6,136 bases of DNA from a virus (lineage: Duplodnaviria; Heunggongvirae; Uroviricota; Caudoviricetes): IMG/VR virus record IMGVR_UViG_3300001149_000009, positions 1-6,136 of that record; one strand, written 5' to 3'. The position numbers and the translations under genes are program-made. The notes beneath the pieces were generated by a model. That model was not told the DNA's origin. It did no database searches and saw only the letters and a list, made by a program, of their open reading frames with translations. Shown piece after piece: positions 1 through 6,136 of the stretch. The first letter of the stretch is position 1, and each line of letters opens with the position of its first letter.

Positions 1-92
1 AACTTGAAAATGATGAAACCCCTTTCAATTTCAAACCATCTCTACCCAAAAAGCTTGACAAAAAAAGAGATAAGGGTGCGGGCATTATCATC

Positions 93-623
93 ATGGAAGA
101 TTATTTTGCACCAAACAGCCGAGAAAATTTTATTTGCTTAGCCATGGAAAAACTAAATAGTAAAGCCATGCTAAAACAAGATGCCTTTAGAACATCATTT
201 TTTAAATCAATGCTAGCTTTCCGCGACTCAATAAATTATATCGACGTCAGATATTATTTATTATTCTCGGCACTAGAAGCACTTTGCAGATTTATTAAAA
301 ATGACTACTCCCCTGCCAAAACACCACAAATAATCACTCAGGTTTTAAAAGAATATGGTTTTAATGTCGAAAAAACAGGACATACATTAGCTCAAAGAAA
401 CATTATGCATTACTGCAAACTCCGTCACTCGCTGTTCCACAATGGTAAATACATTGCCTATCTTGATGAAAAAAACTCAGATGGCAAAATTGAAATTCAA
501 GATTACTCATCAAATTTGAATTTACTGGTGCCACTTGTACTAATGAAATTCATAGGATTTGATGACAATTATATAAACTGGGACTCATGGATTGATAGGA
601 ATCCATTTATCAGTAAAAAGTAA
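93..623 (+). CDS. Hypothetical protein encoded by an AT-rich cargo (moron) gene beside the tail completion gene S; possible HEPN-like fold (R-x4-H motif). True start may lie upstream of the window.
   Basis: ATG at 93 to TAA at 621-623, 176 aa. Counted 60-nt stretches (121-180, 181-240) are ~30% G+C versus 63-67% in sampled phage-gene stretches. Opposite strand to the late operon, convergent with S (stop 650-652). Motif LRHSLFHNG (R111-x4-H116) preceded by QRNIMH. No family recognised by eye. No in-frame stop between position 3 and the ATG at 93, and only a weak, distant purine run (aaggg, ~16 nt upstream) as a ribosome-binding site, so the gene may be 5'-truncated by the window edge. Confidence 0.6.
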   Translation: MEDYFAPNSRENFICLAMEKLNSKAMLKQDAFRTSFFKSMLAFRDSINYIDVRYYLLFSALEALCRFIKNDYSPAKTPQIITQVLKEYGFNVEKTGHTLAQRNIMHYCKLRHSLFHNGKYIAYLDEKNSDGKIEIQDYSSNLNLLVPLVLMKFIGFDDNYINWDSWIDRNPFISKK

Positions 624-649
624 ACTAAATTTTATAAATGTGGTTTTAT

Positions 650-1096
650 TTATCTCTGTAACCAATTTAGCAAAGCATCCTGAATGACAGTTTCCACATC
701 ATCATTTACACCAAGAAGGCGACGCTCTGCGTAACGGACCTCTGGCCCTTTACGACTGACGCGATCACGCAGGCCGTAATGGTGAACGCGGGCAATGCGC
801 TGCACCTTACCTTCAAACTGCACGCTGGCAGAATTGGCGCTGGCGGTAGTTTGAAGGTATTTGGTGGTGCGCAGCTTTGTAAACATCTGACGTTTGATGC
901 GCCCCTTTTTGCTGCGTGCTGTTACCCTACGCGGTTCATAACTGCTGCCATCTGGATTGCGCTGCATCCTGATGTTCTGCTGCTGTGTCCGGCGCAGTTC
1001 CTGCGCCAGCTGACGCATCATGCGGCTTCTTGTGGCTGGCTCCAGATTCGCCAGCAAAGCACTCAGCCAGTCGTCCACCTTCTGCAGTTCAGCCAC
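650..1096 (-). CDS. S: Tail completion protein S (P2 gpS-like)
   Basis: 148-aa ORF (MAELQKVDDWLSALLANLEPATRSRMMRQLAQELRRTQQQNIRMQRNPDGS...) that I recognise as P2 gpS family. It follows R in P2 order and its start overlaps the R stop (1089-1091) by 8 nt. Stop TAA at 650-652. Confidence 0.85.
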   Translation of the reverse strand: MAELQKVDDWLSALLANLEPATRSRMMRQLAQELRRTQQQNIRMQRNPDGSSYEPRRVTARSKKGRIKRQMFTKLRTTKYLQTTASANSASVQFEGKVQRIARVHHYGLRDRVSRKGPEVRYAERRLLGVNDDVETVIQDALLNWLQR

Positions 1097-1520
1097 GTTT
1101 CACCGTCCACATTTCTTCAGGTTCATCGGGCTCTGCTACAGCTTCAACGCTCGACACACTGCCGTCAGTGCTGACCAGCACACGCTCCGTCAGTTGCAGG
1201 TTAAGGCTGATATCACAGACATCGTTGCGCAGAATATCCACCTCAAAGGTGAATAACTTTTCCCGTAACGCCGGATTATTGATGGCATCGGGCTGGTTAT
1301 CCCGCAGCCACAGCAAGACCGGGGCCATCAGCAGATTCTGGTCGCCGCTGAAATCCTCAATCACCGCGTTCAGGGTGTAACGGTACTCCCATGACATGGA
1401 GCTGGCCCCCGTGGCAACCAGCGAACCGTTATCCACAAACAGATGCAGTTTATCCGGGTTATTACGGACATAAGGCACTGCTTTATTGAGGGCGTGGCGC
1501 AGGGATTGTGGTTTGTTCAC
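1089..1520 (-). CDS. R: Tail completion protein R (P2 gpR-like)
   Basis: Translation ...VNKPQSLRHALNKAVPYVRNNPDKLHLFVDNGS...LLMAPVLLWLRDNQPD... resembles P2 gpR as I recall it. The ORF-track start at 1541 is a TTG codon. I prefer the in-frame GTG at 1520..1518, which has an AGGAG Shine-Dalgarno 7 nt upstream. Start is uncertain (1520 vs 1541); either overlaps the 3' end of lysC. Confidence 0.78.
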   Translation of the reverse strand: MNKPQSLRHALNKAVPYVRNNPDKLHLFVDNGSLVATGASSMSWEYRYTLNAVIEDFSGDQNLLMAPVLLWLRDNQPDAINNPALREKLFTFEVDILRNDVCDISLNLQLTERVLVSTDGSVSSVEAVAEPDEPEEMWTVKRG

Positions 1521-5623: not shown

Positions 5624-6136
5624 TCAGCAATTGGTCAGAGTGTCAGCGGAGGCGTTACCGCCTGTTGCACGCTGGCGGTAGTCCTGGCGGCTGTCTTCAT
5701 GACTCAGCTTATTCACCAGTTCGTTAAAGGCGGTCTGCTGTGCCTGCAGGGCAGTCTCCAGCTCAGACAGGCGTTCATCCTGCTCAGACAAAGATTTTTC
5801 GGTGCGTGCGCTCAGGTTCTGCTGCTCAGTGGCGACCAGTTCCACGGCCTTATGCATATCAGAGAACCGGGCGTCATCGGACTGCTCTTTTTTGGTAAAC
5901 AGCGCCGTGACACGGGCAAACAGGGACGGTTTGTCGTCCTGGGCTTCTTCCAGTTCGATCACCGTTTCCTCTGCAGCGGTAAAAAGATTGGCGGGATTCT
6001 GCTTGCGGTTTGCCAGCGGGTTATGGGCTGCACTGGCGCTGAATGTCAGCATTTCCGTACCCAGACTGGCGGGATCATCAGTGGCGGCCAGGCCAACCAG
6101 GTAGGCTTTGCCCGTATCAGCGAACTTCGGGCTGAC
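5624..6136 (-). CDS. O: Capsid scaffolding protein O (P2 gpO-like), partial; 5' end beyond the right window edge
   Basis: The minus-strand frame is open from 6136 down to TGA at 5626..5624. Translation ...KFADTGKAYLVGLAATDDPASLGTEMLTFSASAAHNPLANRKQNPANLF... resembles the central and C-terminal part of P2 gpO as I recall it. The ORF-track M at 6052 is internal. Confidence 0.85.
   Translation of the reverse strand, partial: VSPKFADTGKAYLVGLAATDDPASLGTEMLTFSASAAHNPLANRKQNPANLFTAAEETVIELEEAQDDKPSLFARVTALFTKKEQSDDARFSDMHKAVELVATEQQNLSARTEKSLSEQDERLSELETALQAQQTAFNELVNKLSHEDSRQDYRQRATGGNASADTLTNC

Follow-up and report, generated by a model that had tools for sequence, protein, structure and literature searches.

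The DNA considered here (6,136 nt, hereafter the window) begins within an open reading frame, which raised the questions of how far the gene at its left edge extends, whether it depends on partner genes located outside the window and what its product might do. The minus strand of the window encodes a block of P2-type late genes, composed of O (the scaffold gene, only the 3' part of which is included), N, M, L, X, holin, lysozyme, lysA, lysB/lysC, R and S. The gene at the left edge, referred to below as the cargo gene, lies on the plus strand in an AT-rich stretch of 30-35 % GC, against 52-58 % in the phage backbone; the gene itself displayed 33 % GC versus ~55 % for the backbone.

Extent of the cargo gene

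Translation of positions 3-626 in the frame of the ATG at 93-95 yielded LENDETPFNFKPSLPKKLDKKRDKGAGIII ahead of the methionine, and the absence of stop codons from 3 to 92, on which the original prediction was built, was thereby confirmed. The ORF starting at this ATG is 176 aa long and ends at position 623. As also stated originally, the ATG lacks a well-spaced Shine-Dalgarno sequence, the nearest purine-rich run (AAGGG, 72-76) being located 16 nt ahead of it, beyond Shine-Dalgarno spacing. The 30 stop-free codons had been regarded as unusual; they are real but statistically weak. A stop probability of 0.074 per codon, derived from the local base composition, leaves 30 codons open with P = 0.10, mononucleotide shuffles of positions 3-92 leave the frame open with P = 0.13, and frame 1 of the plus strand is likewise devoid of stops across 1-95. 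Given a chance of ~10-13 % and a second open frame on the same strand, the open frame alone was therefore weak evidence. Frame 1 also contains a 45-aa ORF with a TTG start (4-141, plus strand), which overlaps the real cargo frame and is open to near the edge; it is unsupported as a gene and is best taken as a chance ORF in A-rich sequence.

Megablast of window positions 1-1100 against complete E. coli genomes returned 24 genomes with at least 80 % query coverage. On locus L001, from E. coli DSM 103246, window position 1 corresponds to position 6001, and RefSeq annotates a CDS of 867 nt (5757-6623) that crosses the window edge and encodes a 'hypothetical protein' of 288 aa (WP_001579974.1). This locus is 100 % identical to the window over positions 1-709 (L001 6001-6709) and ~97 % identical over the remaining part; the 182 mismatches (~3 %) are all located past 709, the cargo gene and its 3' spacer being 100 % identical. 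Locus L002 (CP156899.1), obtained from a protein look-up, equals the window at 6135 of 6136 bases, with one mismatch, so that it effectively supplies the missing upstream sequence. Its cargo CDS spans 7001-7867. The ATG at 7001 lies 244 nt ahead of window position 1, AAGG is found 7 nt upstream of it, and an in-frame TGA (6935-6937) is situated 66 nt above it; an alternative ATG at 6953 would yield 304 aa.

The off-window part of the CDS measures 244 nt, made up of codons 1-81 plus the leading base of codon 82, while codons 83-288 begin at window position 3 and the stop codon occupies 621-623. Window positions 1-623 (plus strand), the 3' 623 nt of the 867-nt CDS, are the C-terminal 72 % (last 206 codons) of one edge-cut gene of 288 aa, and the open frame at the left edge is an ordinary window truncation. 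The suspicion that the protein exceeds 176 aa was borne out by L002 and by the RefSeq CDS, both of which give 288 aa, and full-length homologues agree. Extension upstream and re-calling of ORFs placed a start with a Shine-Dalgarno sequence at -244 nt, the frame being open for 81 more codons. The N-terminal length of homologues pointed in the same direction, as relatives of 281-305 aa share an N-terminus that is absent from the ATG 93 ORF. Almost all of the 78 homologues fell within this size range and covered 99-100 % of the 288 aa, with MxxxGIYGY as a common N-terminal signature. An exhaustive profile search gathered 194 cluster representatives (50 % identity clusters), and in most (full-length) of these, profile positions 1-5 align with residues 1-5. 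As judged from these sequence comparisons, it appears virtually certain that the gene encodes 288 aa and begins 244 nt ahead of window position 1.

The reverse reading would take ATG 93 as the true start of a 176-aa product restricted to the HEPN domain described below, with an upstream frame that is open by chance. The chance of ~10-13 % for 30 open codons and the openness of frame 1 speak for it, as does the rough coincidence of residues 113-288 with the HEPN domain alone. This was nonetheless judged extremely improbable: the frame continues over those 81 upstream codons to a start with a Shine-Dalgarno sequence, and the N-terminal 112 residues are conserved family-wide, down to 29 % identity. 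Coordinate mapping identifies ATG 93 as internal Met113, in the linker between the N-terminal and HEPN domains; its alignment column displays M, I, L or V, i.e. the methionine is not conserved, and it lacks a Shine-Dalgarno sequence. For these last two reasons, an internal HEPN-only isoform produced from ATG 93 was also rejected.

A solitary gene in the V-S interval

Upstream of the 288-aa gene are 95 bp of late-promoter DNA, beyond which baseplate gene V begins on the opposite strand. Downstream, a spacer of 26 nt (624-649), in which no terminator-like hairpin was detected, separates the convergent stops of the cargo gene and of gene S (650-1096, minus strand), the tail completion / virion morphogenesis gene (annotation; Pfam Phage_tail_S) that forms the right-hand flank of the slot. 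The original prediction had the gene or system continuing upstream, with possible partner genes off-window. Many defence systems and HEPN toxins (HEPN-MNT, RnlAB) are indeed multi-gene, and the window by itself would be insufficient to exclude that the cargo ORF is one part of such a system with partners just beyond the edge. This is very unlikely, as the upstream interval offers only its 95 bp, containing a TGT-N12-ACA late-promoter box, before V is reached, and the downstream one 26 nt before S. The cargo gene was alone between V and S in every P2-type context seen. The solitary layout is retained, in identical slot and orientation, by an allele of 57 % identity in Klebsiella phage ST437-OXA245phi4.1 and by alleles of 35-36 % identity in Salmonella phage RE-2010, a Salmonella chromosome and E. 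coli GF47. Among 25 diverse non-phage loci no neighbour was conserved, the gene itself being the sole common item besides an integrase (three of 25). An adjacent cognate antitoxin gene of the HEPN-MNT / RnlAB type is absent, both flanks being the phage genes V and S. The gene thus does continue upstream, for 244 nt, while the multi-gene system and its off-window partners found no counterpart in these loci; the cargo gene is a single-gene module.

The place it occupies was already known. In P2 (NC_001895) the nonessential Orf30 (261 aa) is annotated at the corresponding position, likewise antisense, with the O-operon terminator on one side and the pV activator-binding site on the other, and the orf30 region is one of three sites of P2-like phages with horizontally acquired genes (PMC3091744, PMC6823313). 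The cargo gene matches this class, as a single gene that lies between S and the pV activator site and runs against the late operons. In other P2-like prophages of E. coli the V-S interval was empty (68 bp) or contained one DUF6216 gene, one 307-aa gene or a 36 %-identity allele of the cargo family; the 307-aa protein, DUF6216 and P2 Orf30 are all unrelated to that family. All cargo genes seen in the slot were single and antisense to the late operons (L001, L009, L011, L012, L015-L017, L045). As the slot is often empty, the cargo gene is dispensable for the phage. It is a horizontally acquired moron that fills the orf30 position in a prophage of the P2-like type (Peduoviridae). It is flanked on one side by gene S, where the O late operon ends, and on the other by the Ogr-dependent pV promoter of gene V, and it is read antisense to the late genes.

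The TGT-N12-ACA box between V and the cargo start (L001 5710-5727; L002 6954-6971) lies ~274-291 nt upstream of window position 1 and recurs in the O/P intergenic region. According to the P2 annotation, its equivalent is the pV activator-binding site, and the V transcript starts at the V start codon. Since the cargo start follows the box by only 14-30 nt, the cargo promoter must overlap pV divergently; no candidate passed a sigma-70 promoter scan upstream of the cargo start. Each slot variant (empty, DUF6216, 307-aa, HEPN alleles, P2 Orf30) displayed its own version of the box and its own spacer to V. Because both differ with the cargo, the swapped cassette seems to include the late promoter region. 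The full identity of the cargo gene and its 3' spacer to L001, next to ~3 % divergence in the flanking phage genes, suggests that P2-like phages of different hosts have recently exchanged the cassette.

A terminator scan around the cargo gene gave nothing convincing, and late transcription may run antisense through the gene. P2 displays an annotated rho-independent O-operon terminator right after S (L045 1898-1934). The only minus-strand terminator candidate was weak and located inside the off-window cargo coding region (L002 7181-7165).

Protein architecture and family

An AlphaFold2 model built with a 37-sequence alignment (pLDDT 89.6, pTM 0.89) displayed an alpha/beta N-terminal domain (residues 1-105), a linker and a helical C-terminal domain (~121-280) with a beta-hairpin insert at 233-246. 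Strands were predicted at residues 78-82 and 99-103, and the domain break lies near 105-120. The bulk of the N-terminal domain is off-window and only its tail end (residues 83-105) is encoded at 3-71 (plus strand), while the predicted HEPN domain, corresponding to the helical part, is encoded at 117-596 (plus strand). Catalytic HEPN domains are defined by an Rx4-6H motif, in which the arginine is directly followed by a polar residue (N/D/H), and by a second motif with a conserved acidic residue, typically within Ex3[KR] (PMC3710099). Both were recognized here, with codons checked. The Ex3R motif, in the context LExLxR, comprises E174 (276-278) and R178 (288-290) and is encoded at 276-290 (plus strand); the Rx4H motif, with a polar residue behind R223, runs from R223 (423-425) to H228 (438-440) at 423-440 (plus strand) and reads RHSLFH in the window protein versus RNALFH in the family consensus. 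All four residues (E174, R178, R223 and H228) were invariant in 37 out of 37 aligned sequences.

Profile and structure searches gave little beyond these motifs. None of the 176-, 206- and 288-aa versions reached the threshold of a Pfam, NCBIfam or PADLOC model, no curated HEPN-clan profile of Pfam matched the window protein above threshold, and no defence family of PADLOC-DB v2.0.0 matched it even at E <= 10. Apea-like HEPN (PF18739) matched two of the 37 members weakly (best E = 6.5e-4, under the gathering score); when 30 more members were scanned against Pfam, only sub-threshold noise appeared besides such weak HEPN_Apea matches. The HEPN_Apea match of P0036 (E = 0.09) covered residues 187-270 and spanned the Rx4H motif. 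A profile search of PDB sequences retrieved no HEPN chain, its single match being unrelated (2p1a, E = 0.038), and Foldseek of the cargo model against PDB and BFVD returned nothing significant. On the strength of the invariant motifs, the cargo protein is probably a HEPN RNase. The whole predicted catalytic HEPN domain, with both motifs, lies inside the window, and the 176-aa ORF is essentially this domain minus its N-terminal partner domain. The assertion that function could not be judged from the window therefore went too far, as the window holds a complete predicted HEPN domain with both signature motifs.

The family corresponds to phrog_4373, a phage family annotated as of unknown function (E = 2.3e-142, residues 1-285 against profile positions 1-283 of 283). 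In a phage collection, tblastn detected it in seven records (four from Klebsiella, three from Salmonella), all P2-like phages, while megablast of the cargo gene against the same collection gave no match. Outside enterobacteria the family was patchy, being encountered in Halomonas, Shewanella, Vibrio, Acinetobacter, Methylobacter, Thiobacillus, Smithella, Fodinibius and others; none of the non-enterobacterial loci displayed P2 flanks. Literature searches for the protein accession and the PHROG id, and for Apea-like HEPN, retrieved nothing.

In E. coli strains 61 and 64 (L018) the cargo gene was interrupted by IS1, with 776 extra bases including the target duplication. The insertion site corresponds to window positions 469-476, near residue 240 and just past the Rx4H motif, and was found in two of the 24 gene-carrying E. 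coli genomes. Such disruption is compatible with selection against an active cargo copy.

Candidate functions and closest known systems

The best mechanistic precedent for the cargo protein is HepS of the Salmonella prophage Gifsy-1, a solo prophage HEPN abortive-infection protein (PMC13043305). Like the cargo gene, hepS is a single prophage gene without partner, encodes a canonical Rx4-6H HEPN protein and occupies an accessory slot of a temperate enterobacterial phage. HepS is constitutively made as an inactive oligomer, is triggered by a phage structural protein and acts as an anticodon nuclease (PMC13043305). It is, however, shorter and HEPN-only, with its motif at R100-H105, whereas the cargo protein has 288 aa, R223-H228 and an extra alpha/beta N-terminal domain of ~105 aa; furthermore, HepS belongs to a lambdoid siphovirus and the cargo gene to a P2-like myovirus. 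The search for homologues conducted by the HepS authors left out sequences of more than 250 aa (PMC13043305).

Other relationships were more remote. Apea-like HEPN (PF18739; ApeA/BMEI1217, Anantharaman et al. 2013) is the sole Pfam family touched by any member, but none of these matches reaches the gathering score, and none involves the window protein; in addition, the N-terminal domain of ApeA is ~300 aa long and consists mostly of beta strands (PMC3710099), in contrast to the ~105-aa alpha/beta domain of the cargo protein. RnlA/LsoA (RNase LS) toxins are also among the closest known systems. P2 orf30 shares the slot between S and the pV activator-binding site and the antisense orientation, but its 261-aa product is unrelated (hhalign against the cargo family: probability 0.2 %, E = 0.37) and contains hydrophobic segments that probably span the membrane.

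Taken as a whole, the locus is most readily read as a single-gene prophage HEPN ribonuclease, probably serving abortive infection, a reading in which we place moderate confidence. For anti-phage defence as such, which is deduced from context only, the chances appear evenly balanced. By analogy with HEPN biology (PMC3710099) and with HepS, the cargo protein would be a metal-independent endoribonuclease and, as in other HEPN enzymes, two Rx4H motifs brought together in a dimer or larger assembly would make up its active site. The lysogen would express the cargo gene from the gene's own promoter, and the N-terminal domain or the oligomeric state would keep the protein inactive until a component of a superinfecting phage switches the nuclease on; cleavage of tRNA or mRNA would then abort the infection, as with HepS of Gifsy-1.

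HEPN proteins are also known to serve as toxins in toxin-antitoxin systems, to process RNA or to bind without catalysis, and two alternatives follow these lines. Instead of an anti-phage sensor-effector, the cargo protein could be a HEPN toxin ensuring prophage maintenance (addiction), or one neutralized by a small peptide or antisense RNA that has escaped annotation. HEPN domains are common as toxins of toxin-antitoxin pairs (PMC3710099), the cargo gene is oriented against strong late transcription that converges on it, and the IS1 disruption in two E. coli strains would be compatible with a fitness cost. We consider such a toxin improbable, because a partner ORF and a conserved neighbour are both lacking and the non-coding space is very small, and because a two-domain architecture that stays fixed over 194 clusters suggests self-regulation.

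The second alternative is a role other than defence, such as the processing of RNA, control over late transcripts or lysogenic conversion, or a HEPN fold that merely binds RNA. The lack of any matching defence model would fit, as would the occurrence in the same slot of P2 Orf30 and DUF6216, membrane proteins without an assigned role; moreover, some HEPN domains are non-catalytic (PMC3710099). The invariance of both catalytic motifs, an often empty slot that shows the gene to be dispensable for the phage, and a patchy family distribution with adjoining integrases in some genomes nevertheless make this rather unlikely, and the prophage HEPN ribonuclease remains the preferred reading.

A more far-reaching proposal, put forward only tentatively, is that the family (~194 clusters at 50 % identity) represents a new self-contained sensor-plus-HEPN abortive-infection RNase, distinct from HepS, AbiV, RnlA and PrrC, whose divergent alleles would be swapped as single-gene cassettes, each with its own version of the pV promoter region, into the S-V slot of Peduoviridae. 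Under this proposal, the constant antisense placement may allow strong late transcription to silence the nuclease while the resident phage goes through its lytic cycle.

The question of edge truncation is settled: the gene encodes 288 aa and stands alone. The cargo is a compact two-domain HEPN family without curated model, residing in an already known moron slot. Recent hotspot surveys centre on the old/tin and Z/fun loci (PMC9122126, PMC13586616, bioRxiv 2024.10.15.618418), and the S-V slot is a third accessory slot of P2-like phages, less studied than these two defence-mined hotspots. If the cargo has no part in defence, it is one more prophage moron. If it does defend against phages, it would add a single-gene system with a new sensor domain, and the S-V slot would be flagged as another place in which to seek phage-borne immunity.
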